Source of the DNA: Escherichia phage vB_Ec-M-J
Length of the DNA: 64,000 nucleotides
Strand: one strand, 5' to 3'
Sequence record: OQ718158.1
This document shows, piece after piece, positions 919-59,763 of the stretch (the stretch's first letter is position 1; the number at the start of each line of letters is the position of its first letter). Under the pieces are notes generated by a model. It was not told the DNA's origin and made no database searches. It saw only the letters and a list, made by a program, of their open reading frames with translations. A program made the position numbers and the translations under genes.

Positions 919-922
919 ACAT

Positions 923-1114
923 ATGTTGATTTATCAATGTGATAACATTCGTGTTATGCAGCATCCCTACTTACAAATCTTTGATGTGCAGCAGTATATG
1001 GAAGGTGATGACCCAAGAACCTATGGTCGTAAGTATGATTACTTCACTGTAAAGCAGTGTCATAACATCAAAGAAGTACGACAATTAGTTCAAGAACTTC
1101 AAAATAAAGGTTGA
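923..1114 (+). CDS. hypothetical protein
   Basis: track ORF 893..1114 trimmed to first ATG after upstream stop; followed by terminator hairpin. Confidence 0.45.
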   Translation: MLIYQCDNIRVMQHPYLQIFDVQQYMEGDDPRTYGRKYDYFTVKQCHNIKEVRQLVQELQNKG

Positions 1115-1140
1115 CTTCGGTCAACCTTTTTTGTTATAAT
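1106..1140 (+). terminator. fused terminator-promoter module (UUCG-loop hairpin holding TTGACT -35, then TATAAT)
   Basis: AAAGGTTGAC-TTCG-GTCAACCTTTTTT followed by TATAAT. Confidence 0.65.
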
Positions 1141-1169
1141 TACTTCATCAACTACTGGGGATTTTAATT

Positions 1170-1610
1170 ATGTACGTATATCGTTTTGAACTTAAATTCA
1201 GTTATATTGAACCTAACTTAGATCCAGCAAAAACAGTAGGGCCGTTCGCACGGTACTCTTCACGATACAGTACTAAAAATGGATTTGACCGTTTGTGCAT
1301 GACCACGCCTTCGCAATTCCAACCAGAACCAACTGAAGATGGAATCTATTCAATCAAACGTGGCTGGGCATTTGGCTGTCAGAGTTTGAATGATTTGTTT
1401 AAGTTCTTTACTATGGACTTGGGTAAATTACATCGTGCAGGGTTTGCTGTATCAGTATATGAAGTTCCTGATAATCATGTTGACATTGGTCGTAGTCAGG
1501 TTCAGTACTATTGTGGTAGTGCCAATCTGGTTCGTATTATGTCAGTGAGAGAAGCAAAGGATGAGTACCGCCAAAGTAAAAGAGTAATACATGAGGCTGT
1601 ATATGGATAA
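1170..1610 (+). CDS. hypothetical protein
   Basis: 146-aa track ORF directly downstream of terminator/promoter module. Confidence 0.55.
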   Translation: MYVYRFELKFSYIEPNLDPAKTVGPFARYSSRYSTKNGFDRLCMTTPSQFQPEPTEDGIYSIKRGWAFGCQSLNDLFKFFTMDLGKLHRAGFAVSVYEVPDNHVDIGRSQVQYYCGSANLVRIMSVREAKDEYRQSKRVIHEAVYG

Positions 1611-1947
1611 GACTCAAATAGAATTAAAAAAATTTGTATCGTTTTATCTACCCAATGACCCACGTTGTACACAATATGATGTTGCATATTACAATGCATT
1701 GACTACACAGTTAATGAAGAAATTCAAACAGTGTTTGACTGTATTCAATGATGATGGTAGACGTAGATATAGAATCATTCCAATGAATGATGAAAACGAT
1801 AACTACTTTGACTTTGATGTTGTTTTTCGAGCATATAATGATGATAGAATAAAATTAAATTATGAGCAAATAATGCTTGACCTCAGTGTTATCTGTGTTA
1901 TAATTACTCACATAGCCGAACTTGATGGTTTAAAAGAATGGTATTAA
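1603..1947 (+). CDS. hypothetical protein
   Basis: track ORF 1591..1947 trimmed to ATG overlapping upstream stop (ATGGATAA). Confidence 0.5.
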   Translation: MDKTQIELKKFVSFYLPNDPRCTQYDVAYYNALTTQLMKKFKQCLTVFNDDGRRRYRIIPMNDENDNYFDFDVVFRAYNDDRIKLNYEQIMLDLSVICVIITHIAELDGLKEWY

Positions 1948-1961
1948 CTTAGAGGATAATC

Positions 1962-2228
1962 ATGAAGCTTAAATTACAATACAATGGTTTTACTTTGCGT
2001 AACGACACTGAGTTTGTCAATCGTTCACCAGGTGCTGAGTTGTTTTTGCGAGAGATGAACATTCCTTTCGTCATCACTACTGTTGGTGACCGTGAAGTGC
2101 TACAATACGCAGAGCATCCAGTTATTGATGTTCCGTGGTATTCTGAGCATATGTATATGGATATGGCCCGTCGCTACGACTGTAAGTTCGTAGTTGAAGG
2201 TGATAAAATTACAGTCCAATTCAAATAA
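1962..2228 (+). CDS. hypothetical protein
   Basis: 88-aa track ORF; RBS GAGGA before ATG. Confidence 0.55.
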   Translation: MKLKLQYNGFTLRNDTEFVNRSPGAELFLREMNIPFVITTVGDREVLQYAEHPVIDVPWYSEHMYMDMARRYDCKFVVEGDKITVQFK

Positions 2229-2239
2229 GGTAACTTAAA

Positions 2240-2533
2240 ATGATCAGTACTTCAGTAAATGCAAGCATCGTGGCAGACGTAGAAATGGTTAAAGAATGTA
2301 CAGACGAAACCCTTCGCAACATGTACATCAATGATTTGATTTCAGAGTACGGAAGTCGTGGTGTTCATGAGTTTGTTCGCCTAAGCGGTGAATTGATGAA
2401 GAATCGCATTCGTATGAAGCTTAATGTGCATCCAAAAGCATGGGCGTTTACAATGAAGTACGCTGAAGATATTGTTGAGTTGCGTCGCAATGATGTGTAT
2501 AATCGTTTACACAATGGTACATTAAAGGACTAA
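2240..2533 (+). CDS. hypothetical protein
   Basis: 97-aa track ORF; AAGG RBS. Confidence 0.55.
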   Translation: MISTSVNASIVADVEMVKECTDETLRNMYINDLISEYGSRGVHEFVRLSGELMKNRIRMKLNVHPKAWAFTMKYAEDIVELRRNDVYNRLHNGTLKD

Positions 2534-2583
2534 ATTATAGGAATCCGTAAAAGGATTCCTGTTCTTGTTTATAAGGTAATAAA

Positions 2584-2808
2584 ATGAAATATCTAGTACT
2601 AGTACTGCTATTCTTGAGTACTGTTGTATGTGCTAAACCAAAGTATCATGTAGTGTGTATCAACGAGATGGAAGGATATACTGAAACATATAAGAACCAT
2701 ATTGTTGAAGTTGCAGCCCAAGGTTCCTATGGGACCATCATCTTCCTTAAGAACAATGTGATTGTTCAGTACAAAAAAGATTCAAATTGTAAAGTGACTA
2801 AAAAATGA
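2584..2808 (+). CDS. secreted hypothetical protein (signal peptide)
   Basis: N-terminus MKYLVLVLLFLSTVVCA; AAGG RBS. Confidence 0.55.
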   Translation: MKYLVLVLLFLSTVVCAKPKYHVVCINEMEGYTETYKNHIVEVAAQGSYGTIIFLKNNVIVQYKKDSNCKVTKK

Positions 2809-2878
2809 TCTAGATCAATTTTTCAGATATTCTCTGTAAATAATAGCAGTACAGAACATTATTTTACGGAGGTGTAAT

Positions 2879-3115
2879 ATGGAAACTATAATCATCATAT
2901 GTGCGTTGTTTGCATTTTTGGTAATGTGGTCACCAACATTCATTGCATATAAAATGAAAAATAAAAATGCAGAAGCAATTATGTACGTAAACTTATGTTG
3001 CATACTAACTTATGGAATACTTTTATTCTTTACTGAATTTACATTAATCCCAGTAGTAGTTTGTTCATCAATGTTTATTTGGTTGTTTCTGCTTTATGAA
3101 TCTATTAAAAAATAA
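2879..3115 (+). CDS. small membrane protein (hypothetical)
   Basis: 78-aa ORF, two hydrophobic helices; GGAGG RBS. Confidence 0.5.
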   Translation: METIIIICALFAFLVMWSPTFIAYKMKNKNAEAIMYVNLCCILTYGILLFFTEFTLIPVVVCSSMFIWLFLLYESIKK

Positions 3116-3169
3116 AAGATATAGGGTTGGTAATATGCCATCCCTTTTACTTTATGTGGGGTTTAATTA

Positions 3170-3742
3170 ATGAATAGAAAAGGTAAGTTCAAAGTATCAA
3201 AGAAGAACAAAAGTTCTAGATTTAGACCTATAACTTTAACTTTTAAGGCTAAAGAAGAATTAACTGCACTTAGTAAAAAGATAATTTCATCTAAGATTAA
3301 AGTATCATACGTAAATTCGGTAAAATTTCAGAAGGTTAAACCACAAGACAAACTCATTTCACTTATATTTAAACGTAATGATTTTGAGATATTAGTAGAT
3401 GATTATAGAGCCTATAATGCTGGATTCATTCATGTCACTTGTAATACCGAACTAACTGAGTTGGAACATTTGACATGTATCATAAGTGTAGATAACGGTG
3501 TGGTGAAGTACAATTTTTTACATTTTACCAATATCAATAATGGAATGGGTGTACAATCCAGACCTATAGTACCTACATGTGATGTGACTAATTTAGCAAA
3601 GCTCAATGAAGAAGAATATTTTCAAGAAAGCATTGTAACTGAGCATTTAGATGCTATAATAGCAACTTACAAAGAATGCATATGGGTTTTGAATGCGATA
3701 AAGCCCAAATTGTGTTTAATGAATGTCGTTCGTGATTTATAA
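3170..3742 (+). CDS. hypothetical protein
   Basis: 190-aa track ORF; GGGG RBS. Confidence 0.55.
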   Translation: MNRKGKFKVSKKNKSSRFRPITLTFKAKEELTALSKKIISSKIKVSYVNSVKFQKVKPQDKLISLIFKRNDFEILVDDYRAYNAGFIHVTCNTELTELEHLTCIISVDNGVVKYNFLHFTNINNGMGVQSRPIVPTCDVTNLAKLNEEEYFQESIVTEHLDAIIATYKECIWVLNAIKPKLCLMNVVRDL

Positions 3743-3755
3743 CTGGAGATGTAGT

Positions 3756-4199
3756 ATGGGTTGGATTAACGTTAATAGCATTGAACTAAATGAGCAAGAC
3801 ATATTTGCCTTTGTTAATTTGGTAGAGAACATTGCTATTAAAGGTCGTCTGTTTAGTTCATCGGACGGTAAAAAATGGATCTCTCTTATGAACGACAATG
3901 GCGAGATTTATGACGTTATGCAACTACCTCATTGGGCTTATAAGAATACATCTGATGATGTGATGGCTGCTGTTATGCGTGAGTTTGAGAAGCTGCCAGG
4001 TGGTGATATTAAGAACATCGTATTCAATGCAGAACGCATGAACTACACACCAGAGCAGCTTCAACAGTTGGCAATTGCTGCCTATCAAGCTGCCATTAAG
4101 AAACCTGAATGTGTGATATTAAAGTACACACCGAACTTGAAGTTAACACTAGAAGATATGGATTCCTTTATCTTCAGTTCAGAACTTAAACAGTACTGA
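3756..4199 (+). CDS. hypothetical protein
   Basis: track ORF 3723..4199 trimmed to ATG after GGAG. Confidence 0.55.
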   Translation: MGWINVNSIELNEQDIFAFVNLVENIAIKGRLFSSSDGKKWISLMNDNGEIYDVMQLPHWAYKNTSDDVMAAVMREFEKLPGGDIKNIVFNAERMNYTPEQLQQLAIAAYQAAIKKPECVILKYTPNLKLTLEDMDSFIFSSELKQY

Positions 4200-4270
4200 T
4201 TTGACTTTGGAACAACCATTTCATATGTGATATAATCTTAAGTGTCTGTTGAAATAAACAGCACATGAAG

Positions 4271-4278
4271 TATAAATA
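4271..4278 (+). promoter_or_regulatory. T4-type late promoter motif TATAAATA (tentative)
   Basis: exact TATAAATA about 35 nt upstream of 4311 start; 8-mer alone expected by chance in AT-rich DNA. Confidence 0.3.
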
Positions 4279-4310
4279 TTAAAGTAATTTATCTCTTTAA
4301 GGAGTATGAA

Positions 4311-4694
4311 ATGGTTGATAAATGGAATAAGAAAGATCCATCGCATGATGTGGATATTTCTGGAATTGATAATGCACATAAGCATAAGTATCTTGATTCA
4401 CTAGGTCTACTAAAGCCTGACCAAAGTCTTGCACATGATCGTCCTTCACGCGAAAAAGCTTTCAGTTTAGAATCACTAGGCCATGAATTGAATCGTGTAT
4501 TTGAAGATCATCCAATTTATGTACGTGATATCATTGAGAAACTTAAAGTGACTCCTAAAGAGCACTTCAAGGCAACAGTACACGCAGCATTCCGTGCACT
4601 ACATGAAGCACTAAAGAAAACTCATAACCTTCGTAAGATTCATGATGATATCGTGAACTCTATTGAAGGCGAAAAACATAAGTTTAAAAAATAA
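4311..4694 (+). CDS. hypothetical protein with Y(L/V)(D/N)SLGLL motif
   Basis: 127-aa ORF; AAGGAG RBS; TATAAATA late-type motif about 35 nt upstream; motif shared with 5542..7053. Confidence 0.6.
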   Translation: MVDKWNKKDPSHDVDISGIDNAHKHKYLDSLGLLKPDQSLAHDRPSREKAFSLESLGHELNRVFEDHPIYVRDIIEKLKVTPKEHFKATVHAAFRALHEALKKTHNLRKIHDDIVNSIEGEKHKFKK

Positions 4695-4698
4695 TTAA

Positions 4699-4734
4699 AA
4701 GGGGTTGACTTCAGTCAGCCCTTTGTCGTATAAT
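4699..4734 (+). terminator. fused terminator-promoter module
   Basis: GGGGTTGACTTCAGTCAGCCC hairpin then TATAAT. Confidence 0.55.
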
Positions 4735-4781
4735 ATTTTCATCAAGTGATACAAAATACAAACAACGTGAGGTATTAAATT

Positions 4782-4895
4782 ATGCAAGGTACTAAATTCA
4801 TCATCGCTGCCCTAATCGCTGCTGTTGTAGTGGGTACAGTATGTTATTCAATTGACACCTATATCAATACACCTAGTGTTGAACAAACCAAATAA
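4782..4895 (+). CDS. small hydrophobic peptide (37 aa, hypothetical)
   Basis: hand-found ORF below track threshold; GAGG RBS; single TM-like segment. Confidence 0.35.
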   Translation: MQGTKFIIAALIAAVVVGTVCYSIDTYINTPSVEQTK

Positions 4896-4903
4896 GGGAT
4901 ATC

Positions 4904-5167
4904 ATGGCTGAAACATTATCACTATATGCGTTAGTACTGTTATTTGTCGGATTTCTTCCCGCACTCATTACAGCCATTCGTGTTGTTAAACATGAAGCTG
5001 CATTGATTGTATGTAGTATTGGGTCGAACATTCTATTGTATTTCTTTTTGACAAACACTATTGTACTGTTCGCTTTCTTTATCATGATTCTGTGGGTACT
5101 TGTAATTCTCGGATTCTTCATTTGGTCATTGGTTGATCCTAAGAAAAAAACAGGAGAAGTGAAATGA
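4904..5167 (+). CDS. small membrane protein (hypothetical)
   Basis: 87-aa hydrophobic ORF; stop overlaps next start. Confidence 0.5.
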   Translation: MAETLSLYALVLLFVGFLPALITAIRVVKHEAALIVCSIGSNILLYFFLTNTIVLFAFFIMILWVLVILGFFIWSLVDPKKKTGEVK

Positions 5168-5460
5168 AATTAATTATTGTAATGATGATGTTTTTGGCTT
5201 TCCCAGTACTGGCTACTCCTAATCTGGACTGCACACTGTTGCGTTCAGATGGTGACACACTTGAAATCAACACATATGAACTCTTTGGTCCAAGTGTAGT
5301 GGAGAATGAAACCACCTACAATTTCAAAGCTATTGACTTTGAAGGTAATGTTCCAGTACTAACTACAATGACTATTGACAAAACTACTTTACTCGGACGA
5401 ATCACCACACAACGCGGAGAAAGTAAAACATTCACAGCGAAAGCTGACTGTAACTACTAA
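5164..5460 (+). CDS. secreted hypothetical protein (signal peptide)
   Basis: N-terminus MKLIIVMMMFLAFPVLA; GGAG RBS. Confidence 0.55.
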   Translation: MKLIIVMMMFLAFPVLATPNLDCTLLRSDGDTLEINTYELFGPSVVENETTYNFKAIDFEGNVPVLTTMTIDKTTLLGRITTQRGESKTFTAKADCNY

Positions 5461-5481
5461 TGGTATAGTACAGTGAAAATA

Positions 5482-5513
5482 GGGTTGACTTCGGTCAACC
5501 TTTTCTTTATACT
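5482..5513 (+). terminator. fused terminator-promoter module
   Basis: GGGTTGAC-TTCG-GTCAACC then T-run and TATACT. Confidence 0.6.
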
Positions 5514-5520
5514 ATAAATA
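5513..5520 (+). promoter_or_regulatory. T4-type late promoter motif TATAAATA (tentative)
   Basis: exact TATAAATA about 25 nt upstream of 5542 start. Confidence 0.3.
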
Positions 5521-5541
5521 TAGTCATAGAGAATAAACAAT

Positions 5542-7053
5542 ATGAAATCTATGGAGAGAAATCAAATGCCAGGTCAATTTACTGATAAAAATGGCGGGAA
5601 CATGGCAGGTCACTCTGATAAATGGAGTGAACGCAATCGTCGTCAAAATAGCTACCAAGCAGGACAGGGGTCACGTGGTTCACGTAATCAAGGGACAGGT
5701 TTAGCTGGTAAGGCAAACGCAGAAGCAGGTGAAGTTAAGAGTACTGAGAACATGACTGAGCTAGAAAAGCTACGTTATGTTAACTCATTAGGTCTTCTTA
5801 ACGCAACACAGAAACAACGCCTTGCTGATATGGAACGTGCTGAGAAAGAACAAGAAGTTCCTAAAGAAGAACCAAAACCAGAAGCTCCTAAAGCAGCTAA
5901 CCCTGTTAAAGAGTTATCTGATAACTTAGGTAAGATCTTTGCTAACAAACCACAGTTGATTCAGGGTATTGTCAAAGCACTACAGGCAGTTCCTAAAGAA
6001 GAACTCAAAGGTAAAGCACAAGCTGTACTTGATGCAATGAAAGGTAATAAGAGCACTGAACCTACTGAAGTATTCAGTACTATCATGCGTGCACTTGAAG
6101 GTACACACAAAGAAGATTCCAAAGAACCTGAACAGGGTGAAGCAAGTCTTGATGGTATTCTTAAAACTTTTGATAGTATTGGTAAAGCAGACCGTGCTAA
6201 TGCCCAGCAAGTCAAGAATGTACTGGCTAAACTTGAAAACCGTTTAGAAGGTAAAGATGATAAGGTTAAGCTCGTATCAGATGCAGTTAACAGTGCACTT
6301 AAATCTTATGTACAAGGTGAGAAAAGTCGCTTCGTAACAGCTATGGATGCTGCATTCAACACTATGAAAAAGTATGAAGCAGAACATGGTGAGAAAGTGA
6401 CACCTGATGGATATCTACTACGTAAAGATGAAGAAGGTGCAGTTGAACAGAAAGATGTTGAGCCTGAGCAAGAAGATCTACCTGATACCGTTGATATGGA
6501 TGGATACATTCATCGTCCTGAGATGGAAGAGTTTGGGTCAGATAAAGAAGGTTTTGAACATGCAATGGCAGTATATAAAGCATTAGTTAAAAATCCAGAT
6601 TATGCTAACCGTTTTGTTGACGAGTTTGATAGTGCATGGAATAACTACAAAGAGAAAGGTTATGATTTCCCTGCTGAAGCTGCATTCTTTGAACTTGGTA
6701 AACTATTAGCTAAACATGGAATTGACGTTGGTTCATCTGATTCCGAAGGTATGGAAGAAGAACATCTTGAAATGACTGATAAATCAATTCATGAACTTCA
6801 AAAGTTAATGATGTGGATATCCGAGATTGGTAAAAAAGCAGGTGCTGATAGTAAAAGTATCAACAAAAATATTAGTTGGATTAAAGATAATGTTGGTAAC
6901 AATGCTCGTAAACTTCAAAAGGCTTGGGCTGATTTAGTAAATGGTGCAGATGATGTTGACATTGAATCACCAGAAGCATATGAGTATGCACTAACTACAC
7001 TTGATAACTCATTCAAAGAGTACGACCGTGGTGTTGGAAAGGATAAAAAATAA
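5542..7053 (+). CDS. acidic K/E-rich 503-aa protein (hypothetical; candidate late/virion protein)
   Basis: longest plus-strand ORF in part 1; TATAAATA at 5513; shares SLGLL motif with 4311..4694. Confidence 0.7.
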   Translation: MKSMERNQMPGQFTDKNGGNMAGHSDKWSERNRRQNSYQAGQGSRGSRNQGTGLAGKANAEAGEVKSTENMTELEKLRYVNSLGLLNATQKQRLADMERAEKEQEVPKEEPKPEAPKAANPVKELSDNLGKIFANKPQLIQGIVKALQAVPKEELKGKAQAVLDAMKGNKSTEPTEVFSTIMRALEGTHKEDSKEPEQGEASLDGILKTFDSIGKADRANAQQVKNVLAKLENRLEGKDDKVKLVSDAVNSALKSYVQGEKSRFVTAMDAAFNTMKKYEAEHGEKVTPDGYLLRKDEEGAVEQKDVEPEQEDLPDTVDMDGYIHRPEMEEFGSDKEGFEHAMAVYKALVKNPDYANRFVDEFDSAWNNYKEKGYDFPAEAAFFELGKLLAKHGIDVGSSDSEGMEEEHLEMTDKSIHELQKLMMWISEIGKKAGADSKSINKNISWIKDNVGNNARKLQKAWADLVNGADDVDIESPEAYEYALTTLDNSFKEYDRGVGKDKK

Positions 7054-7062
7054 ACATTTAAA

Positions 7063-7100
7063 AGGTTGACTTCGGTCAACCTTTTTTTGTAAATATTGTA
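7063..7100 (+). terminator. terminator hairpin of module type
   Basis: AAAGGTTGAC-TTCG-GTCAACCTTTTTTT. Confidence 0.65.
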
Positions 7101-7124
7101 GAGGGTTTTATAAGAGGTAATGCA

Positions 7125-7376
7125 ATGTTTAAATATGTTTTATTTTCACTTGTATTGTTTACTGATATAGTTTATAGTACTGAATACCAGTGCTCCATTG
7201 CTAGACAGGAGTTTAGAAACGGTGAGTTCTATACCAAGTCTTACACTAGAGGATTGGTACATGACAATAATAAAACTATAGGGTTCAATGCATTTGATAA
7301 CAAAGATCGATATACGTCTGGAATACTATCTGAACGTAAGTCTGATATACTAGGTATCGAGCGTGAATTCCGGTGA
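7125..7376 (+). CDS. secreted hypothetical protein (signal peptide)
   Basis: N-terminus MFKYVLFSLVLFTDIVYS; GAGG RBS. Confidence 0.5.
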   Translation: MFKYVLFSLVLFTDIVYSTEYQCSIARQEFRNGEFYTKSYTRGLVHDNNKTIGFNAFDNKDRYTSGILSERKSDILGIEREFR

Positions 7377-7386
7377 CACGGTTGCA

Positions 7387-7737
7387 ATGTGTAATGATAT
7401 TGAGAGTACTAAGAAAGTATATACTAATGGTGAAAATACTTTTAGATTCCACAATCTTACTACTAATGAAAGTTTATACTTCTACAACTGTAAAGAGTTC
7501 ATTAAACCTGTGGATAACTCATGTGATATGCCGGAGCCAAAAGCTGCTGTATGTGAGGAACCACAATCCAAAGCTGACAAAGATTCAAAAGATAAGAAAG
7601 ACAAAGCTGACAAATCGGATAAAAAAGAAAACAAAAAGAAAGCTAAAGATGATAAAGATAAAAAGTCCCCTAAGCCAAATCCATTTGAAAAGCCAAAGAA
7701 TGAAAAGCCAAAACCAGACATGACATGTAAAATATAA
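7387..7737 (+). CDS. hypothetical protein with Lys/Asp-rich low-complexity tail
   Basis: track ORF 7363 (GTG) trimmed to first ATG; may be a frameshifted continuation of 7125..7376. Confidence 0.4.
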   Translation: MCNDIESTKKVYTNGENTFRFHNLTTNESLYFYNCKEFIKPVDNSCDMPEPKAAVCEEPQSKADKDSKDKKDKADKSDKKENKKKAKDDKDKKSPKPNPFEKPKNEKPKPDMTCKI

Positions 7738-7742
7738 AAGAA

Positions 7743-7777
7743 AAGGGTTGACTTCGGTCGGCCTTTTTTGCTATAAT
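7743..7777 (+). terminator. fused terminator-promoter module
   Basis: GGGTTGACTTCGGTCGGCC then TTTTTTGCTATAAT. Confidence 0.6.
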
Positions 7778-7803
7778 CATTTCATCAACTACTGGAGGCA
7801 AAC

Positions 7804-8217: not shown

Positions 8218-8228
8218 GGAACAACATC

Positions 8229-8504
8229 ATGCGTTCATTTGAAAACTTAATAGGTAAACTTCGCTTACAAGAAATTGAAGCTGATGTGAAGGAATTATCT
8301 GAAACTAAGAGTTACATTCATTTAGATGAACTGTTTATTAAGTACGGTGAGATTGGTTTTAAGTCATTATTTGTGTTTGTCATGAAGGTGCATAGTTTAA
8401 AGTACTTTGATTTGAGTTCAAAAGACGGACAACCAAATCTGTATTACATGTATTATCTTAAGAACATAGACGAAGCTAATACATTATTCTTAGAATATAT
8501 GTAG
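8229..8504 (+). CDS. hypothetical protein
   Basis: track ORF trimmed to ATG after AAGGAACAA. Confidence 0.5.
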   Translation: MRSFENLIGKLRLQEIEADVKELSETKSYIHLDELFIKYGEIGFKSLFVFVMKVHSLKYFDLSSKDGQPNLYYMYYLKNIDEANTLFLEYM

Positions 8505-8513
8505 GGGTAAAAA

Positions 8514-8852
8514 ATGGAACAACATTTTGAATTAATTAATAAGGTATCATTTTATGTAGTATCATTAATTTGGGTGTATTACATGTTTTGTTACATTATT
8601 GCATTCTTCCGATACACGACCTTGTATCAACGCATATACTACGATGCACCCATTTCATTTATGATGTTCTGTGCATGTACGTGGGGGATAATTGAAGCAC
8701 TGGTATGTGGATATAGTACTGACGAATTAAATCTCGTATCGGGGTTGACATTACTAACAATTGCCATTATGATAGCTACTGTTCCGATATTTTTGCTCTT
8801 TAAACTGCTTCATCGTATCGATGAGTGGCGTAATAAAATCCCTGAAAAGTAA
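8514..8852 (+). CDS. small multi-pass membrane protein, family A paralog 1
   Basis: about 112 aa, hydrophobic, C-terminal basic tail ending KIPEK; tandem with two paralogs. Confidence 0.6.
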   Translation: MEQHFELINKVSFYVVSLIWVYYMFCYIIAFFRYTTLYQRIYYDAPISFMMFCACTWGIIEALVCGYSTDELNLVSGLTLLTIAIMIATVPIFLLFKLLHRIDEWRNKIPEK

Positions 8853-8861
8853 GGATTGATA

Positions 8862-9203
8862 ATGATTTTTTACACTAATGCGTTTGCTTATGCCGTTGCA
8901 TCAATCTACATTGTGTACTTCTTATTTGGTGGAGTACTGTACTTCTTTAAGTACAAAACATTGTTTAACCGAATGTATCCAAATCACCCAATTGTAGTAG
9001 TACTTTTGATGATTTCTGTTGCTCACATCATTGTAGAAACAATAATGGGTATCAGTGCAGTACATTACAGTCTAGGTACTATTGTGATTATTACTATGAT
9101 CATCGCATACATTTTAGTAATGGGTTCTGGTTTATTTGGGAATGTAGCAATGAAATTGTATAATCGAATTAAAACCTTACGTGATAATCTACCGGAGCGT
9201 TGA
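8862..9203 (+). CDS. small multi-pass membrane protein, family A paralog 2
   Basis: track ORF (TTG) trimmed to ATG; tail ends NLPER. Confidence 0.6.
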   Translation: MIFYTNAFAYAVASIYIVYFLFGGVLYFFKYKTLFNRMYPNHPIVVVLLMISVAHIIVETIMGISAVHYSLGTIVIITMIIAYILVMGSGLFGNVAMKLYNRIKTLRDNLPER

Positions 9204-9204
9204 G

Positions 9205-9549
9205 ATGTATAATTTAAATTTAATCTCATATATCATAACAACACTGTTTACTTTCTATACCTTTGTCGGTATACTCCTACTGTACTTTAAATTTTATAAA
9301 CTCTTTGACCGTTTATATCCATCATTGGAACATGAATTCTTATTGGTGATGTACATCTGTTTAACGTGTATGTCTACATTTTTCACTGTATTTGATGGTA
9401 TCATCGGTATTAAAGCTGAAGATCCAAATGGCAGTACACTTGTTGCCTTTATCCTGGTAGGATTCTTCGGTACTTATATCACTTTCATTTCAACATGGTC
9501 TGTGGTTGATTATCTCATTAGATTACGAGATAAAATGCCAAATCGATAG
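9205..9549 (+). CDS. small multi-pass membrane protein, family A paralog 3
   Basis: track ORF (GTG) trimmed to ATG right after upstream stop; tail ends KMPNR. Confidence 0.6.
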   Translation: MYNLNLISYIITTLFTFYTFVGILLLYFKFYKLFDRLYPSLEHEFLLVMYICLTCMSTFFTVFDGIIGIKAEDPNGSTLVAFILVGFFGTYITFISTWSVVDYLIRLRDKMPNR

Positions 9550-9558
9550 GGGATTGCT

Positions 9559-9816
9559 ATGTTTGCATTGCGTAATAAAAATACAAAAGAGATTCTATGT
9601 ATCTCAACAGTATGGGATTGTGCAGGAAGTGAAATGATCCTCGAAGAAGGTTCAGGTGATTGTGTTTATGTTGTTCATGATCGTCGCGAACTGGAATCAT
9701 TACTTGATGAATTTAATGCTGGTGGAAATCCTAAAAGTACTCAATTCCCTGAGATCAGGAATCCAGCACCACCAGGCTCTTATGAAATTCTACAACTGTG
9801 GGAGATGGATAAGTAA
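9559..9816 (+). CDS. hypothetical protein
   Basis: 85-aa track ORF; GGGG RBS. Confidence 0.5.
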   Translation: MFALRNKNTKEILCISTVWDCAGSEMILEEGSGDCVYVVHDRRELESLLDEFNAGGNPKSTQFPEIRNPAPPGSYEILQLWEMDK

Positions 9817-10196
9817 TGCGACAAATGCACAAAGTAACCGAGCTAAACAAGCGTCTGATTAAACAATCAATGTTTGAGGATAAAGAGTCTTACTATAACT
9901 TCAAACGTGCTGTAGAGGCTGCTATCCACATTCAGAAGCTTAAAGATAGTGGATGTATTATTCTCGAAAATGGTTCTGACGTTGTTACTGATGACTTCAG
10001 TGTAGCGTTTGATGTTTCACCTGATGGTTCGCTATCAATGCCACGCTTAGGGACTGGTGACATGACTGTGTGGGTAGGTTTCACTATGGGGAATGTACCA
10101 GGCACGGTGTATGTAGATGATGCTGAGTTGAAAGAAAGCTTTAAAAACTTATCGCATCTTGAACCACAATACGCACATGAAATGAATTTATTTTGA
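9816..10196 (+). CDS. hypothetical protein
   Basis: 126-aa ORF; start overlaps upstream stop (TAATG). Confidence 0.55.
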   Translation: MRQMHKVTELNKRLIKQSMFEDKESYYNFKRAVEAAIHIQKLKDSGCIILENGSDVVTDDFSVAFDVSPDGSLSMPRLGTGDMTVWVGFTMGNVPGTVYVDDAELKESFKNLSHLEPQYAHEMNLF

Positions 10197-10197
10197 G

Positions 10198-10225
10198 TTG
10201 ACAAACTCATTCAGTACTGTATAAT
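10198..10225 (+). promoter_or_regulatory. sigma70-type promoter followed by 5' GC hairpin (10235..10255)
   Basis: TTGACA-N16-TATAAT; hairpin GGGGATGAACTTCTCATCCCC. Confidence 0.6.
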
Positions 10226-10272
10226 GTTTATCAAGGGGATGAACTTCTCATCCCCACAATCGAGGAATTGTC

Positions 10273-10827
10273 ATGATTACTTTTAAGAAAACTGCTAACC
10301 ACATCCATGAGATCTACATTAACGGTCACAAAGCTGGCCTTCTTCGTTTACTCGCCCATCATCCGAATATTACCGTATCTGATAATGAACCTAAAGATTG
10401 GCGTGTATTTTTCTTTGGAAAGTACAGTGATTTTCAAGTATCAAACCTGAAGAACATTCGTTCAGTATGCACGTTAACTGAAATTAAAGAAAAGTTAACC
10501 AAAGCATTGAAAACTAATCCAGATGGTGTTCTTCCACCTGATAACTTTGTAGAGAAAGGATATGCCTTAGCTCATTTCAAAGATGGTACTATTCAATCTA
10601 TCAGTACTGAATATGAATATCAATGGACTGAGTACTTCACTTATGGATCGCGTAATACATTGATGGCTTCACGTAGTAAATTGGAAGAAGTACTGACTCG
10701 TATGAATGAACGCGAGCGTCAGTACTATGACAAACCAGAAATGTGGAGTTCAACTTACATTGACCGTATTGACTATGTTATTATGACTCCAATCTTTGAC
10801 ACTGCTTACTATGATTCTTTGAAATAA
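10273..10827 (+). CDS. hypothetical protein
   Basis: 184-aa ORF behind TTGACA-N16-TATAAT promoter and 5' GC hairpin. Confidence 0.6.
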   Translation: MITFKKTANHIHEIYINGHKAGLLRLLAHHPNITVSDNEPKDWRVFFFGKYSDFQVSNLKNIRSVCTLTEIKEKLTKALKTNPDGVLPPDNFVEKGYALAHFKDGTIQSISTEYEYQWTEYFTYGSRNTLMASRSKLEEVLTRMNERERQYYDKPEMWSSTYIDRIDYVIMTPIFDTAYYDSLK

Positions 10828-10838
10828 GGATAACTTAT

Positions 10839-11015
10839 ATGAAACTACGTACTCGTAATCGACTGATGGATGCACTGTACCATGAACAGCTTTCACTGAA
10901 TGAAGTGAAGCGACAGTTAATGTACACATATCTGTTACCCGCTCGCATTGCAAAACAACGTGCTAAAGAATTGCTGAAAGAAGCAATCGAGTACTGGGAA
11001 TCTGATTCGTACTAA
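10839..11015 (+). CDS. small hypothetical protein (58 aa)
   Basis: hand-found ORF below track threshold; AAGGA RBS. Confidence 0.35.
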   Translation: MKLRTRNRLMDALYHEQLSLNEVKRQLMYTYLLPARIAKQRAKELLKEAIEYWESDSY

Positions 11016-11043
11016 TTGTCACGTTAATTAAGTGAGGCGATAA

Positions 11044-11295
11044 ATGAAAATTTTATTAGTTCTAATACTACTAATTGTTTTACCATTTACGTTAGTATCC
11101 CCTGAACTTGCATGGAATGTGTTTGTGTACTTACTATGTACTATGATAGTAAATGGTATCTTGTTCTTAGTTCTATTCATAAATGGAATAGGACACGGTG
11201 GAGGATGGACCAGTACTGCTGATATTGTACATAAAACCACTATGTCTTTATTTGTAGTGTGGAATTTATTCTGGACTTGGTTTGTGTTCTTCTAA
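11044..11295 (+). CDS. small membrane protein (hypothetical)
   Basis: 83-aa hydrophobic ORF; GAGG RBS. Confidence 0.5.
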   Translation: MKILLVLILLIVLPFTLVSPELAWNVFVYLLCTMIVNGILFLVLFINGIGHGGGWTSTADIVHKTTMSLFVVWNLFWTWFVFF

Positions 11296-11305
11296 TTAAA
11301 AAAAT

Positions 11306-11677
11306 ATGAATATAGATTTGAAAGGTGCAACACGAACTGTCATACTCATTGGGGAATATGCTATCAAGATTCCAACCTTTAAAAGTTGGAAGCTATTCTT
11401 AACAGGGATGATAGCTAACCTCAATGAACGTTCGTGGATGCAGTACTCCAAGCGTAGTGATACTGGTATCTGTCCTACTTTGTGGTCATCATGTACTGGA
11501 CTAGTAACTGTACAGAAACGTTGTAAGCCAGTACAACATAGGGGTTTATTTTGGGTGGAGTTGTGTGCTTTAGCATTGAATTCAGAGTTAAGTACTGACT
11601 TCTTCTATTCAGATGCGAAGCCAGAAAACTTTGGGTATCTGTGTGGTAAGTTGGTTAAACTTGATTATGGAGATTAA
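11306..11677 (+). CDS. mini protein-kinase-like protein (hypothetical)
   Basis: YAIKIP (beta3 Lys-like), DAKPEN (catalytic-loop-like), KLDYGD (DFG-like) in kinase order; weak RBS. Confidence 0.45.
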   Translation: MNIDLKGATRTVILIGEYAIKIPTFKSWKLFLTGMIANLNERSWMQYSKRSDTGICPTLWSSCTGLVTVQKRCKPVQHRGLFWVELCALALNSELSTDFFYSDAKPENFGYLCGKLVKLDYGD

Positions 11678-11678
11678 T

Positions 11679-11948
11679 ATGTACGCATTGTATAATAAAG
11701 AAAAGAAACGATTTGCTAAGGTTGAAATTTCGATTGATACATTTGATATGTTGGAGTACTGTATTGTAACGGACTTATATGCTAACTTGTATTACGTTCT
11801 TGATGACGTATCAGTACTGCAACGATTGCTTGAGAATTCCAAAAGTCAATGCCAGGGCATCCATGATGGTTCATCTTATGAAACACCTGAGTGTTCCTAC
11901 GGCTATCTGGACGGGTATGAGATTGTGAAGTTGGGGATTGTTGAATAA
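11679..11948 (+). CDS. hypothetical protein
   Basis: track ORF trimmed to ATG immediately after upstream stop. Confidence 0.45.
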   Translation: MYALYNKEKKRFAKVEISIDTFDMLEYCIVTDLYANLYYVLDDVSVLQRLLENSKSQCQGIHDGSSYETPECSYGYLDGYEIVKLGIVE

Positions 11949-11960
11949 ATGGATTAAACA

Positions 11961-12374
11961 ATGAAGAAGTGTATCACGTGTAATATTGAAAAAGACATTA
12001 GTGAATTTGGTATAAGAAGTGATACTGGGAAACATAGAAATACATGCAAAGGTTGTAGTAATATTACCAGTAAGAAAACCAGAAATAAAAAAACTGATGT
12101 CAAAAAACTTGAAGAAATCAAAAGAAAAAATAAAGATTTCATGACCAGAGTTAAATCATTTTATGGTTGTAGTGTTTGTATGATGAAGTATCCAGAATGT
12201 TTAGACTTTCACCATCTTGACCCTAATACCAAAGAACATACACCAAGTTCTATGTTCAGTAAAAGTCGAGATGCTATCAAAGATGAAATTCGAAAGTGTA
12301 TGATTCTTTGTTCTAATCACCATCGCATGGTACATTCTGGTAGACTATGTTTGATTGAAAGAAAAAAGGGTTGA
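11961..12374 (+). CDS. HNH endonuclease (homing-endonuclease-like)
   Basis: Cys pairs plus HHLDP...CSNHHRMVH, an HNH-type motif; stop lies inside terminator hairpin. Confidence 0.75.
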   Translation: MKKCITCNIEKDISEFGIRSDTGKHRNTCKGCSNITSKKTRNKKTDVKKLEEIKRKNKDFMTRVKSFYGCSVCMMKYPECLDFHHLDPNTKEHTPSSMFSKSRDAIKDEIRKCMILCSNHHRMVHSGRLCLIERKKG

Positions 12375-12400
12375 CTTCGGTCAGCCCTTTTTGCTATAAT
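12366..12400 (+). terminator. fused terminator-promoter module
   Basis: AAAGGGTTGAC-TTCG-GTCAGCCCTTTTTGCTATAAT; HNH gene stop lies in stem. Confidence 0.65.
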
Positions 12401-12428
12401 CATTTCATCGAAACGAGAGGATGAATAC

Positions 12429-12944
12429 ATGACACGCATTAACTTAGTACACGTTAAAGAACTTGCTGACCAACATCTGATGGCTGAATATCGTGAACTC
12501 CCACGTGTGTTTGGTGCTGTACAAAAACATGTTCAAGCACGTAAGCGAGTCCGTGATTTCAAAATTAACAGTACTTACCTGTTAGGTTCAGGTCATGTAA
12601 CATTCTTCTACAACAAGTTATTGTACTTACAGAAGCGTCATATTGATATTGTTAACGAATGTTTGCGTCGTGGTATGAAGATTCAAAACACTGAAGTAAA
12701 CGACATTAGCGGATTCCCTGCTGAGTTTTGTAATGACTACGTACCATCGGAGTCAGAGATTAAAATGTCTCGTGAGCGTTTGATTGAGAAGCTCCAGATG
12801 AAGCCTACGTGGTATAAATTTACTGACGTTGAACGCCCACAGTACGTTAAAGATATGCAGGACGTAAGTAGTAATATAGAATCTAGTACTGATATGTTAG
12901 ACGAAATTGAAGAACAAATCAAAGATGAAATGAATAATTATTAA
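12429..12944 (+). CDS. denV: endonuclease V, pyrimidine-dimer DNA glycosylase (T4 DenV homolog)
   Basis: N-terminus [31 protein letters not shown] matches T4 DenV as recalled from memory. Confidence 0.85.
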
Positions 12945-12982
12945 AGGTAAGGGTTAACTTCGGTCACACAAAGGAACATAAC

Positions 12983-13177
12983 ATGTTATTAGTATATTCA
13001 AAGCGTTTCTGGATTTCTTTTATTGTACTATCGCTTATCGGCTTCGGTGTGAGTATACTCTTTTCGTGGGATGAATTGGGTACATGGTATTATGAAGTTC
13101 CGTGGTACATGAAGATAGCTCCTTGTTATGCGGCATTGTTCGTGTCATTCCTTATTGTTGTCTTCAGCGAGGATTAG
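12983..13177 (+). CDS. small membrane protein (hypothetical)
   Basis: 64-aa ORF with two hydrophobic segments. Confidence 0.45.
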   Translation: MLLVYSKRFWISFIVLSLIGFGVSILFSWDELGTWYYEVPWYMKIAPCYAALFVSFLIVVFSED

Positions 13178-13283
13178 TTGATGTAGTAGGTGCTACACCA
13201 AAGTATTTGGATATTTGAGATATAAACATTGACACCTGTTCTATCTTTCTGTATTATGTACATCACCAAATGAGGAATACCAC

Positions 13284-13643
13284 ATGGCATCTTTAAGTGA
13301 AATCGCGGAATACAACCCACTAACAATCTCAACAATTCAACGTACAAAAACTTTTTATTTCCGTCCTGCTGATGGATGGAAACGTGGAATGAATGGTGAC
13401 TATCGAGTACTGGAAGATGCACTCGTCGAGCGTATCAACTCTGAACTACATAAGTATGAAGGTGTTAAAGTTGTGCGTTCAACTTCTCGTTATTTTGAGT
13501 ACTACATTGAGTCTTCAACTGTAAATGAAAACTCATCATTCTCGGTGGATAACACTGATATTCTTCGCAATGCAGTTGGTCTGTTATGCAACATTGCTGA
13601 GGAAATGGGATTAACTATTACTACAATGAGTGAATTAGAATGA
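13284..13643 (+). CDS. hypothetical protein
   Basis: 119-aa ORF behind TTGACA-N17-TATTAT promoter; GAGGAA RBS. Confidence 0.55.
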   Translation: MASLSEIAEYNPLTISTIQRTKTFYFRPADGWKRGMNGDYRVLEDALVERINSELHKYEGVKVVRSTSRYFEYYIESSTVNENSSFSVDNTDILRNAVGLLCNIAEEMGLTITTMSELE

Positions 13644-13837
13644 TTAAAACTTTTATTCTTACTATGGTATTTGGGTCTTATGGGTATGGTGGTGGTGTAG
13701 CAACAGTTGAGTATCCATTATACGAAGATTGTAAGGCCGCCGCTGAAGTGTTTGTAAAAACAACCAAAGATTTAGCAACTGTCACTGATGCAAAAGCTTG
13801 GTGTACAACTAAAAATACACCAGAAACTAAGAAATAA
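13640..13837 (+). CDS. small hypothetical protein
   Basis: 65-aa ORF; ATGA overlap with upstream gene. Confidence 0.5.
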   Translation: MIKTFILTMVFGSYGYGGGVATVEYPLYEDCKAAAEVFVKTTKDLATVTDAKAWCTTKNTPETKK

Positions 13838-13843
13838 AAAATA

Positions 13844-13879
13844 AAGGGTTGACTTCGGTCAGCCCTTTTTGCTATAATT
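13844..13879 (+). terminator. fused terminator-promoter module
   Basis: same 36-nt module as at 12366 and 15256. Confidence 0.65.
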
Positions 13880-13904
13880 ATTTCATCAACTGATGAGGTA
13901 ACAA

Positions 13905-14141
13905 ATGAAACTATCTTTTATACGATTAGCTGAATTTTTCGGTACTAATGTAATTACTCTACAACAAATCGCAGATAATACATCATTAACTACTCAAGAA
14001 GTACTTGACTTAGATGTAATTCAGTGCGATAATACTTCCATCGATTACAAAGAAGGTCTTGTCGAAAAAGATAAGATTCAAGCTAAGATTAATGGTGCTG
14101 GACGGGTTCAGTACTGGAAAGGAGTTTTAAGTAATGTATAA
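13905..14141 (+). CDS. hypothetical protein
   Basis: 78-aa ORF after terminator/promoter module; GAGG RBS. Confidence 0.5.
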   Translation: MKLSFIRLAEFFGTNVITLQQIADNTSLTTQEVLDLDVIQCDNTSIDYKEGLVEKDKIQAKINGAGRVQYWKGVLSNV

Positions 14142-15249
14142 ATTTTATTTTAATGACGATGGTGAAAAAGTTTATTTCCACGAAGAACTTGGTATGCGTT
14201 TTGAATGGATGCACGCGGAAGACATTGAACAATTTTCTTGTGGAAAAACTGCCAAAGACCACGTTGATGACATAGAGGCATCATTCTATGATTTAGGAAT
14301 AACTGATATCACAATTTTGGGTATTGGTGTGTCAAACGCAGCTGAATTTGGTATTTCTGGAAATTCACATGCTAAAATCGTCTTAAAAAAAGACGATATC
14401 ATCTATAATAATTATAAAATAACTGCTTTTAAAACAAAGCTTAATAAGTTGTCAGAAGGTGATGGTATTAAGTTATCTTTTTCATACACAAATGATAATT
14501 ATTACTATTACGTAACCAAACTTGCAAAATTACAATCTAAAAACTGTCATATACATCCAAATGAAATAATTGATAATGGAATTTCATCTAAAATAAAATT
14601 CACATATAGTGATGGTGTAACTGTACCTAGAAGAATAAATGATATATTGACAAAAACTAAAATTAATGTGAGTTATTTTGTAGATGATGATATTAGAGAT
14701 GGGGTAGCTTTAAATCGATGTAGAGAATTGAAATATCATTTTCAGTCTATTTACAAGCATGAGAATGGACGATACTTTGTAAAATATGAGTGTACTAGAG
14801 GTCATCAATGTGATCAAGACTATCATGCATTTACTGGTACAGCGAAGCAATCATGTGGTGTGTGTTCTAAACTTAAGACACACTCATATGGTCATAATGA
14901 TACCATGAAATTTTTAAGGAATTTGCATATTACAATAACGGAAAAAACTTTCAATGATTTGAAAGATAAAATGAAACTTCCATATGATTTTTATGTGAAA
15001 GATTTAAATGCGTTGATAGAATATGACGGTAGTGATCATTTTAAAAATAAGTCATCTCGAAACAATTTTATTGATCGTCAGAAGAAAGATAAAATGAAAA
15101 CGGAGTACGCAATCAACAATGGATATAACTTCCTACGAATTGCATATTATGAAGGTCATCTTGAAGTACTGGAATCTTTCCTGAAACTCATCGAAGAGAA
15201 CCCAGGAAAGCAAATCGTACAGATTTATGGTGATGTGAAAATCATCTAA
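14134..15249 (+). CDS. putative nuclease (zinc-ribbon plus PD-(D/E)xK-like C-terminal domain)
   Basis: C-terminus IEYDGSDHF...DRQKKDKMK...GYNFLRIAY resembles restriction-endonuclease-like fold; Cys/His cluster. Confidence 0.5.
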   Translation: MYKFYFNDDGEKVYFHEELGMRFEWMHAEDIEQFSCGKTAKDHVDDIEASFYDLGITDITILGIGVSNAAEFGISGNSHAKIVLKKDDIIYNNYKITAFKTKLNKLSEGDGIKLSFSYTNDNYYYYVTKLAKLQSKNCHIHPNEIIDNGISSKIKFTYSDGVTVPRRINDILTKTKINVSYFVDDDIRDGVALNRCRELKYHFQSIYKHENGRYFVKYECTRGHQCDQDYHAFTGTAKQSCGVCSKLKTHSYGHNDTMKFLRNLHITITEKTFNDLKDKMKLPYDFYVKDLNALIEYDGSDHFKNKSSRNNFIDRQKKDKMKTEYAINNGYNFLRIAYYEGHLEVLESFLKLIEENPGKQIVQIYGDVKII

Positions 15250-15255
15250 AACAAA

Positions 15256-15290
15256 AAGGGTTGACTTCGGTCAGCCCTTTTTGCTATAAT
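15256..15290 (+). terminator. fused terminator-promoter module
   Basis: same module; GCTATAATCATTTCATCAACTGATGAGG continues to RBS. Confidence 0.65.
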
Positions 15291-52825: not shown

Positions 52826-52831
52826 AAAAAG

Positions 52832-52862
52832 TGGTTGACTCCGGTCAGCCATTTTGCTATTA
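52832..52862 (+). terminator. fused terminator-promoter module, UCCG-loop variant
   Basis: GGTTGAC-TCCG-GTCAGCC then TTTTGCTATTATAT. Confidence 0.55.
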
Positions 52863-56474: not shown

Positions 56475-56488
56475 AAATAATTGAAAAA

Positions 56489-59749: not shown

Positions 59750-59763
59750 AAAAGATTAAAAAA

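Follow-up and report, generated by a model that had tools for sequence, protein, structure and literature searches.

The phage window and its repeated module

The DNA analyzed here is a stretch of 64,000 nt from Escherichia phage vB_Ec-M-J (record OQ718158.1), hereafter called the window, in which a short intergenic hairpin containing the -35 box of a promoter is repeated twelve times. The GC content of the window is 35%, and its identity to the 121Q-group Escherichia jumbo phages (Asteriusvirus; JP4, 121Q, G17, and Turkey3) is 82-98%, arranged in mosaic blocks. By this comparison it is a mosaic relative of 121Q, JP4, and G17, that is, part of a 121Q/RaK2-like giant coliphage. Genes are directed rightward at 1-18.6 kb and 42-64 kb and leftward between these regions. 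The two rightward regions are arrays of small hypothetical genes, and the modules are confined to them, with none in the minus-strand block at 20-42 kb. A tRNA scan of the window found none, and an Rfam scan of the whole window gave no gathering-score match to any curated covariance model. At E<=1, the region 43.4-63 kb gave sub-threshold Rfam matches only, all of them away from the modules.

A first, sequence-only reading of the window had described a module of about 36 nt with a UUCG loop, repeated eight times in the first part, and a UCCG-loop variant at 52832, 56489, 59764, and 62520. Both groups were recovered. When both strands of the window were searched for GGGTTGACTTCGGTCAGCCC with up to three mismatches, twelve matches were found, all on the plus strand (1108, 4702, 5482, 7063, 7745, 12368, 13846, 15258, 52832, 56490, 59765, and 62521), and none of 100 dinucleotide-preserving shuffles of the window contained a match. 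The UUCG-loop group has eight members (1108-15258, with the loop UUCA at 4702) and the UCCG-loop group has four (52832-62521). The variant GGGATTGACTCCGGTCAGTCCC is exact at 56489, 59764, and 62520, where the three copies are identical over 22 nt, and copy 52832 carries a covarying outer stem, TGG...CCA.

All twelve copies are intergenic and have the same orientation as the genes. Their common layout begins with stop codons in several frames and an A-run, followed by GGG-TTGAC, a 4-nt loop, GTCAG-CCC, and a T-run. It continues with (TG)C-TATAAT, or with TATTAT in the UCCG group, and a CAT start region about 7 nt further on. In the UUCG group, a leader of 20-41 nt with a Shine-Dalgarno (SD) sequence leads to the ATG. 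The stretch CATTTCATCAACTGATGAGG is exact after copy 15258, one base off after 13846, and close after 7745 and 1108. This approach to the ribosome-binding site, which had been proposed for several copies, is present at these four UUCG copies. The UCCG copies do not run straight into a ribosome-binding site because a conserved stretch and a second promoter intervene. At copies 1108 and 12368, the upstream open reading frame (ORF) terminates at the TGA within TTGAC, and the orthologous genes are annotated likewise in the JP4 record.

Hairpin and predicted terminator half

The fold of each copy was compared with those of 200 shuffles. All twelve copies fold, with energies of -12.7 to -21.6 kcal/mol and z values of -3.9 to -6.7, and none of the 200 shuffles was as stable. 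Seven of the eight UUCG copies (1108, 5482, 7063, 7745, 12368, 13846, and 15258) have 4-7 consecutive U directly after the GC-rich stem. With the usual features of an intrinsic terminator (a GC-rich stem of 5-14 bp, a loop of 3-8 nt, and a U-tract), seven copies are clear, and 4702 and the four UCCG copies are weak.

Pairing was examined with the seed TTGAC-N4-GTC, which fixes three pairs, in a sample composed of the window, three relatives, Vibrio phage nt-1, and five large IMG/VR contigs. The stem extends to at least 8 contiguous pairs in 59 of the 66 seed occurrences. Among 45 distinct copies, 91.3% of cells pair, compared with 25-62% for slid 3' partners, and compensatory changes on both sides are present at 7 of the 12 pairs. 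None of 500 shuffles reached the observed values. The first T of TTGAC pairs as a U.G wobble in 37 of the 45 copies, and in 45 of 50 in a set filtered for full stems. Because the wobble is kept, the DNA is usually not a true palindrome and the minus-strand RNA folds worse, at -6 to -19 kcal/mol compared with -14 to -22 kcal/mol for the plus strand (the stretch of module 5 reaches only -6.1 kcal/mol as minus-strand RNA). The loops vary between copies and are mostly the RNA-specific stable tetraloops UNCG (39 of 50, over-counted since the sample was partly gathered with a TTCG-containing seed) and GNRA (3 of 50). Covariation, the wobble, and the loop classes favor a hairpin formed by the plus-strand RNA over a protein-binding DNA palindrome.

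C(UUCG)G tetraloops are reportedly present in the intercistronic regions of T4. Like the module, the terminators there follow directly on a stop codon and have a GC-rich stem, a C(UNCG)G loop, and a U-tract. In the module, however, the 5' arm is also the -35 box and the U-tract is also the promoter spacer.

Predicted promoter half

The -35 hexamer is TTGACT, and its final T doubles as the first base of the loop. It had been placed in the 5' arm about 18 nt from a TATAAT. This spacing was found in six UUCG copies; five others, namely the UCCG group with TATTAT and copy 5482 with TATACT, have a spacer of 17 nt, and copy 7063 has no credible -10. Altogether, 11 of the 12 copies combine TTGACT, a spacer of 17-18 nt, and TATAAT, TATTAT, or TATACT, and the A-run lies upstream in all twelve. 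An extended -10 (TG at -15/-14) is present in nine of the twelve, and six copies match the sigma70 consensus at 11 of 12 positions. The proximal subsite of the UP element is said to be AAAAAARNR, and the A-run followed by GGG resembles it.

In T4 early promoters, the -35 element is a GTTTAC-like box. The module instead has the E. coli consensus TTGAC, and its spacer contains a terminator arm. The likeness to the 'UP/-35/TGn/-10' early promoters of T4 lies in the stacking of an A-rich upstream element, -35, TGn, and -10. T4 early promoters stack several RNA polymerase recognition elements and in this way out-compete host promoters (Hinton 2010, PMC2988021).

Table 1. Positions of the modules and associated elements in the window (starts and functions are predicted).
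Feature	Position	Strand	Hairpin	Promoter	Adjacent genes and remarks
Module 1	1106..1140	+	1106-1129, AGGTTGAC-UUCG-GUCAACCU + A/U extension; -14.0 kcal/mol, z -5.0	TTGACT 1111-1116, spacer 18 nt, TGn-TATAAT 1135-1140; predicted start ~1147	Upstream ORF 893..1114 (+), stop = TGA inside TTGAC, JP4 orthologue CDS ends alike; ATG 1170
Module 2	4699..4734	+	4699-4724, loop UUCA, 3 U after stem; -16.0 kcal/mol	-35 4705-4710, spacer 18 nt, TATAAT 4729-4734 without TG	ATG 4782
Module 3	5481..5513	+	5481-5502; -12.7 kcal/mol	-35 5485-5490, spacer 17 nt, TATACT 5508-5513	ATG 5542 (+), 503-aa protein, annotated in relatives as structural protein
Module 4, degenerate	7060..7093	+	7060-7085, perfect, U7 tract; -14.2 kcal/mol; terminator score on both strands	-35 7066-7071; -10 not credible (TGTAAA/TAAATA)	
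Module 5	7740..7777	+	7740-7769, GGGUUGAC-UUCG-GUCGGCCU, three G.U pairs; -15.3 kcal/mol	-35 7748-7753, spacer 18 nt, TGn-TATAAT 7772-7777	ATG 7804
Module 6	12363..12400	+	12363-12392; -19.0 kcal/mol	-35 12371-12376, spacer 18 nt, TGn-TATAAT 12395-12400	ATG 12429 (+), endonuclease V / denV homologue
Module 7	13843..13878	+	13843-13868; -16.6 kcal/mol	-35 13849-13854, spacer 18 nt, TGn-TATAAT 13873-13878	ATG 13905
Module 8, canonical	15252..15290	+	15252-15283; -21.6 kcal/mol, z -6.7	-35 15261-15266, spacer 18 nt, TGn-TATAAT 15285-15290, then CATTTCATCAACTGATGAGG	ATG 15319
Module 9, UCCG	52828..52863	+	Outer stem UGG...CCA covaries; -16.9 kcal/mol	-35 52835-52840, spacer 17 nt, TGn-TATTAT 52858-52863	Then ~105 nt conserved + second promoter
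Module 10, UCCG	56486..56521	+	9-bp GC stem GGGAUUGAC/GUCAGUCCC, 3 U after stem; -19.5 kcal/mol	TGn-TATTAT 56516-56521	Then long leader + second promoter
Module 11, UCCG	59761..59796	+	Built as module 10; -19.5 kcal/mol	TGn-TATTAT 59791-59796	
Module 12, UCCG	62517..62552	+	Built as module 10; -19.5 kcal/mol	TGn-TATTAT 62547-62552	
Second promoter family, examples	44152, 44612, 47033, 52957, 56622, 57078, 60199, 62219	+			
CCCAYMGGGTGC element	46005, 52890, 54556, 56543, 59823, 62574	+			
CCCAYMGGGTGC element	43575, 43791, 46062, 48044	-			

Relation to PeSLs and other known systems

A promoter-early stem-loop (PeSL) is a repeated intergenic element of phages RB49 and phi1 in which a stem-loop is combined with a consensus sigma70 promoter and an A/T-rich stretch (Arbiol et al. 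2010, PMC2839356). Five subclasses were distinguished, one of which has the stem-loop over the -35 box. One PeSL stem-loop cut lacZ expression about as much as rrnB T1 did, the promoters were so strong that clones acquired mutations in the -35 or -10, and mini-circles formed between PeSLs were detected (Arbiol et al. 2010, PMC2839356). The class was later extended to the PST/T4 and nt-1/KVP40 phages; for nt-1, the stem consensus is A3-4 G3-loop-C3 T3-4 and the promoter is TTGYVH-N17-TAWWAT (Comeau et al. 2014, PMC4122927).

The module resembles the PeSLs of the nt-1/KVP40 type in its A/T-rich upstream region, sigma70-like -35 and -10, stem-loop able to overlap the -35, and SD with a start codon. 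Like PeSLs, it is intergenic and lies among small ORFans; a tie to indels and replacements, as described for PeSLs, may exist for the UUCG group and was not seen for the four UCCG copies compared with JP4. The stem consensus of nt-1 fits the module, and nt-1 position 44632 carries the same GGGTTGAC...GTCAGCCC stem. The published PeSL site in the ORF109/ORF110 gap of nt-1 reads AAAAAGGGTTGAC-AGAT-GTCAGCCCTTTTTTGTATCAT, with the same stem and the same fusion. The module differs from published PeSLs in its host lineage, a 121Q/RaK2-like jumbo phage, in its mostly hyperstable C(UUCG)G loop, and in the 18-nt spacer with TGn of its main group; furthermore, both activities were assayed for RB49/phi1 PeSLs, whereas here they are predicted. 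By architecture, the modules are PeSL-type cassettes, and the element as a kind is not new (published in 2010 and 2014).

Other systems share single aspects with the module. The lambdoid 'morons' are likewise autonomous units of expression that a phage genome can acquire; in contrast to PeSLs, their signals are separate, with no conserved repeat and no presumed role in mobility (Arbiol et al. 2010, PMC2839356). RNA polymerase can stay on the DNA after intrinsic termination and re-initiate nearby (Harden et al. 2020, PMC6978322). The module places a terminator within a few bases of a promoter, a geometry that matches this behavior, and recycling of the polymerase at the module is conceivable. 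The coupling of bacterial promoters with terminators is also the subject of a preprint from 2026.

Distribution and earlier annotation

A BLAST search with one module matched 176 phage records. Near-identical modules stand before genes in Vibrio phage VH7D (Schizotequatrovirus), Vibrio phage D482, Aeromonas phage 65.2 (Ishigurovirus), Enterobacter phage F1M1E (Certrevirus), and Xanthomonas phage XbC2 (Mimasvirus). About the same 30-40 nt thus recur across Asteriusvirus/RaK2-like phages, Schizotequatrovirus, Ishigurovirus, Certrevirus, and Mimasvirus. The U.G wobble is conserved in all five lineages, and the CATCGAAAC start region is present in several. The module is not borrowed from the host, because no match was found in 5,426 complete E. 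coli genomes. Among the genomes of bacterial species, the exact hairpin followed by TTT is present in only eight contigs (Vibrio, Bdellovibrio, Bacteroidetes, and Clostridia metagenome-assembled genomes), where it forms a plain terminator, at times followed by a -10-like hexamer. Of more than 120 IMG/VR matches to the 14-mer GTTGACTTCGGTCA, most were chance hits inside GC-rich coding sequence, and only about 15 were full modules, on large phage contigs.

Both halves of the element have already been seen in this lineage, since they are listed as terminators in G17 and CBB and, in one variant, as a promoter (Porf_41); their fusion is unremarked there. In G17, seven 'terminator' features predicted by ARNOLD coincide exactly with the seven module positions found there. 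In the supplement of the CBB paper, GGGTTGACTTCGGTCAGCCC hairpins appear as the terminators Torf39, Torf515, Torf518, and Torf520. The CBB table of 18 RpoD-like promoters omits these hairpins, and the variant Porf_41 is included there as a promoter. The term PeSL was not found for 121Q/RaK2-like phages in the open literature. What seems to be new is the near-identity of the module across lineages, the conserved U.G wobble, and the use of the TGA of the -35 box as a stop codon.

Genome plasticity near the modules

In a local BLAST comparison of 1-21 kb with JP4, 121Q, and G17, about 20 distinct homology endpoints were found. Five of them (4745, 5476, 12354, 13833/13838, and 15253) are at most 15 nt from a module, and about 0.6 would be expected by chance, as module neighborhoods make up about 3% of the region. 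The relatives have a 135-nt cassette where the window has one of 730 nt, between modules 4702 and 5482. Homology with JP4, 121Q, and G17 stops at 4745, about 10 nt past the -10 of module 2, and starts again at 5476, 6 nt ahead of the hairpin of module 3. Directly upstream of module 12368 lies an inserted HNH-endonuclease ORF (11961..12374, 137 aa) whose stop codon is the TGA in TTGAC; JP4 has this ORF too, and 121Q and G17 lack it. The site just upstream of module 13846 has three states: it is empty in 121Q and occupied by an ORF of 65 aa (13642-13837) in the window and of 203 aa in JP4. A homing-endonuclease segment has been replaced before module 15258; the replacement stops 5 nt short of the module, with 121Q homology back at 15253. 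The clustering of endpoints is consistent with PeSL-mediated shuffling.

The gene at 14134-15249, directly upstream of module 8, encodes 371 aa and is a homing endonuclease according to the JP4 annotation. Neither this gene nor the endonuclease gene at 11961-12374 has a promoter of its own, and the presence of both differs among relatives. Expression of both would depend on read-through from the genes before them, with transcripts stopping at the module. In JP4 (PQ330092 120275-145838), the gene pattern of the locus 3460-5616 recurs at 23574-25564, and the same window segments match both places. This recurrence suggests a direct repeat in the early region, with about 20 kb between its copies, or an effect of assembly or of a terminal repeat.

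Interpretation of the module

Each module is best understood as a PeSL-type composite cassette of a 121Q/RaK2-like jumbo coliphage that stops one transcript and starts the next, with a probability of about 0.8. The basis of this interpretation is sequence, fold, covariation, position, comparative breakpoints, and the architecture shared with published PeSLs; from these, termination, initiation, and recombination at the module itself are predicted. That a single element could end the upstream transcript and start the following one had been the central proposal of the sequence-only reading. The anatomy for it was found, with the fold in 12 of 12 copies and the -35/-10 in 11 of 12, and the architecture proved to be that of the published PeSL.

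In an incoming transcript, GGG-UUGAC and GUCAG-CCC would form a GC-rich stem of 8-9 bp with a C(UNCG)G cap and a U-tract. Stem and U-tract would terminate transcription intrinsically, or attenuate it, within the spacer of the promoter that follows, and after release the hairpin may also shield the mRNA at its 3' end. Read as double-stranded DNA, this sequence would be a strong early promoter for E. coli sigma70. The A-run and GGG would serve as a proximal UP-like element, and the A-run would also lengthen the stem by pairing with the U-tract. TTGAC would have a triple role as -35 box, 5' arm of the stem, and source of the TGA stop codon. The 3' arm and T-run would be both the 17-18 nt spacer and the terminator, TGn-TATAAT would be the extended -10, and transcription would start at the CAT about 7 nt further on. 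This predicted start lies about 20 nt downstream of the hairpin, leaving the module's own transcript without the terminator. The module would therefore halt incoming transcripts and not its own, so that gene cassettes are insulated and transcription is restarted at a set strength. Being a repeat of about 60 nt, it would also offer homology for swapping, inserting, and deleting cassettes between copies.

Several points weigh against this interpretation. At copy 4702 and in the UCCG group, the GC stem is followed by no more than 3-4 U, and termination there is therefore probably weak and leaky. Copy 7063 lacks a usable -10, and because of this, module 4 is probably a terminator only, a 'half PeSL' with a dead promoter half. 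The 18-nt spacer of the main group is one base above the optimum. In the same region, the promoters at 10198, 13229, and 16099 carry no hairpin, so the hairpin is dispensable for promoter function. With respect to recombination, BLAST endpoints are biased towards any conserved repeat, and a crossover inside a module is not proven by them; the four UCCG modules lie within blocks conserved with JP4 and not at breakpoints. A search of the literature found no transcriptome paper for Asteriusvirus or RaK2-like phages.

The main selected role of the module could instead be that of a portable homology patch, in which PeSL shuffling and mini-circles matter most and the transcription signals are cargo. 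This is compatible with the composite stop-and-start cassette and has a real, though lesser, chance of being correct. The cassette swap between 4702 and 5482, the insertions upstream of 12368 and 13846 (the latter in three states), and the replacement ending at 15258 are all in its favor, as are the mini-circles between PeSLs (Arbiol 2010, PMC2839356). Moreover, the stop codons in all frames and the TGA in TTGAC make the module independent of reading frame. Against it stand the position of the UCCG copies away from breakpoints and the attraction of alignment endpoints to conserved repeats. Furthermore, two of the plasticity events involve insertions of homing-endonuclease genes, which are mobile by their own mechanism.

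A more speculative possibility, and an unlikely one, is that the module is a horizontally mobile, minimal bifunctional cassette that passes between phage lineages, with the fusion itself as the functional point. Polymerase released at the U-tract would be handed directly to the promoter and would re-initiate, and each gene cassette would obtain an insulated, reset rate without competing for free polymerase. The U.G wobble might then be kept to block a mirror-image TTGAC from serving as an antisense -35 and to weaken an antisense terminator.

It is still less probable that the element is a promoter only, with a hairpin that mainly stabilizes RNA 3' ends or acts as a weak attenuator that most polymerases pass. 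The short U-tracts in 5 of the 12 copies would suit this proposal, as would an IMG/VR variant (L010) with the TTGAC hairpin and TGn-TATAAT and no U-tract, and the far commoner second promoter family at 44-64 kb, described below, whose hairpins have no U-tracts. However, seven of the eight UUCG copies, with 4-7 U after the GC-rich stem, have the canonical form of an intrinsic terminator. Orthologues were called terminators by ARNOLD, and a PeSL stem-loop equaled rrnB T1 in a reporter (Arbiol 2010, PMC2839356). It is very improbable that the module is a DNA operator at which a dimeric phage or host regulator binds a palindrome spanning the -35 and spacer and thereby turns early promoters off or on: the inverted repeat is centered there, early promoters need later shut-off, and another palindrome, AGTACT, is built into the neighboring promoter family, but the commonest form is no DNA palindrome (T opposite G in 37 of 45), compensatory changes keep the pairing while the half-site sequence varies, the loops are of the RNA-specific UNCG and GNRA classes, and near-identical modules in five phage lineages on different hosts make one shared regulator unlikely.

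The composite cassette implies no new mechanism, because the concept and its experimental proof of principle date from 2010-2014. It would widen the range of PeSLs from the T4-like Straboviridae to 121Q/RaK2-like jumbo phages and other lineages. Published annotations divide one element between unrelated 'terminator' and 'promoter' lists, and in these phages, themselves candidates for phage therapy, the module would provide a rule for the boundaries of transcription units in the early regions. The modules would also mark likely hot spots for the exchange of gene cassettes, homing endonucleases included. As a compact 36-nt part that would insulate and restart transcription, the module may be of use in synthetic biology.

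UCCG neighborhood and the second promoter family

The region 44-64 kb has 103 promoter-like sites, compared with 65 ± 8.5 in shuffles, and 11 of them are a perfect TTGACA-N16/17-TATAAT. About 30 of these sites, at 44150-62700 on the plus strand, form a second family of cassettes with the layout AAAAAGTAC-TTGCAA/TTGACA, N16, TATAAT, GTTTTACATC, a Gn-loop-Cn leader hairpin without a U-tract, SD, and ATG; a further member lies at 10198. Nearly every small ORF in this region is preceded by its own copy, and the family resembles the RB49/phi1 type of PeSL. The breakpoints at 44-64 kb tend towards this second family instead of the UCCG modules, and many breakpoints with JP4 (for example 44924, 47018, 47658, 55769, 56725, 57330, and 60687) are within about 20 nt of its cassettes.

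Each UCCG module is followed by about 105 nt of conserved non-coding sequence and then by a second-family promoter. The conserved element CCCAYMGGGTGC has ten copies in the window, and those on the plus strand extend as RYAARTGTATCTAT. Each copy lies about 25 nt past a strong TG-extended sigma70 promoter, which in four cases is a UCCG module. Two copies, 46005 (+) and 46062 (-), overlap in convergent orientation. For this element, no Rfam match, convincing consensus fold, or conserved ORF was found; a small RNA and a site for a regulator are the candidate identities. Two candidates were rejected. A conserved RNA structure in the UCCG leaders was not upheld, as RNAalifold gave a weak 7-bp hairpin with no compensatory change. 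A micropeptide starting from the GTG in GGGTGC was dismissed because it has no spaced SD and its reading is not conserved in the minus-strand copies.

AGTACT, Chi, and other features

The palindrome AGTACT, with the preferred context CAGTACTG, occurs at 288 sites in the window compared with 22.5 +/- 5 expected, and this 13-fold excess makes it the most over-represented hexamer of the window. Its density is 9.4/kb in intergenic and 3.0/kb in coding sequence, in all three frames, and is highest at 36-64 kb. The spacing of the sites was checked for periodicity, and the gaps were found to be near Poisson. AGTACT is about 9-fold enriched in JP4, 121Q, G17, a RaK2-like contig, and CBB, and is not enriched in Vibrio phage nt-1. 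Promoters of the second family contain it at about -38 and -20, and it is also part of a terminator between convergent genes at 18602-18628. A literature search found no paper on AGTACT over-representation. Candidate roles include binding of a lineage-specific protein, DNA modification, and priming or nicking.

The convergent-gene terminator at 18602-18628 is a perfect 12-bp inverted repeat, AATCCAGTACTATAATAGTACTGGATT, with two AGTACT sites and a terminator score on both strands. It lies between the genes 18225..18596 (+) and 18633..19757 (-).

The E. coli Chi octamer GCTGGTGG has 15 sites (9718-62639) compared with 0.67 expected, which is about a 22-fold excess. Eight sites at 49939-62632 are all on the plus strand, and those at 56574 and 62632 are inside the long leaders after UCCG modules. 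This pattern suggests an oriented protection of the region 49939-62632 from RecBCD.

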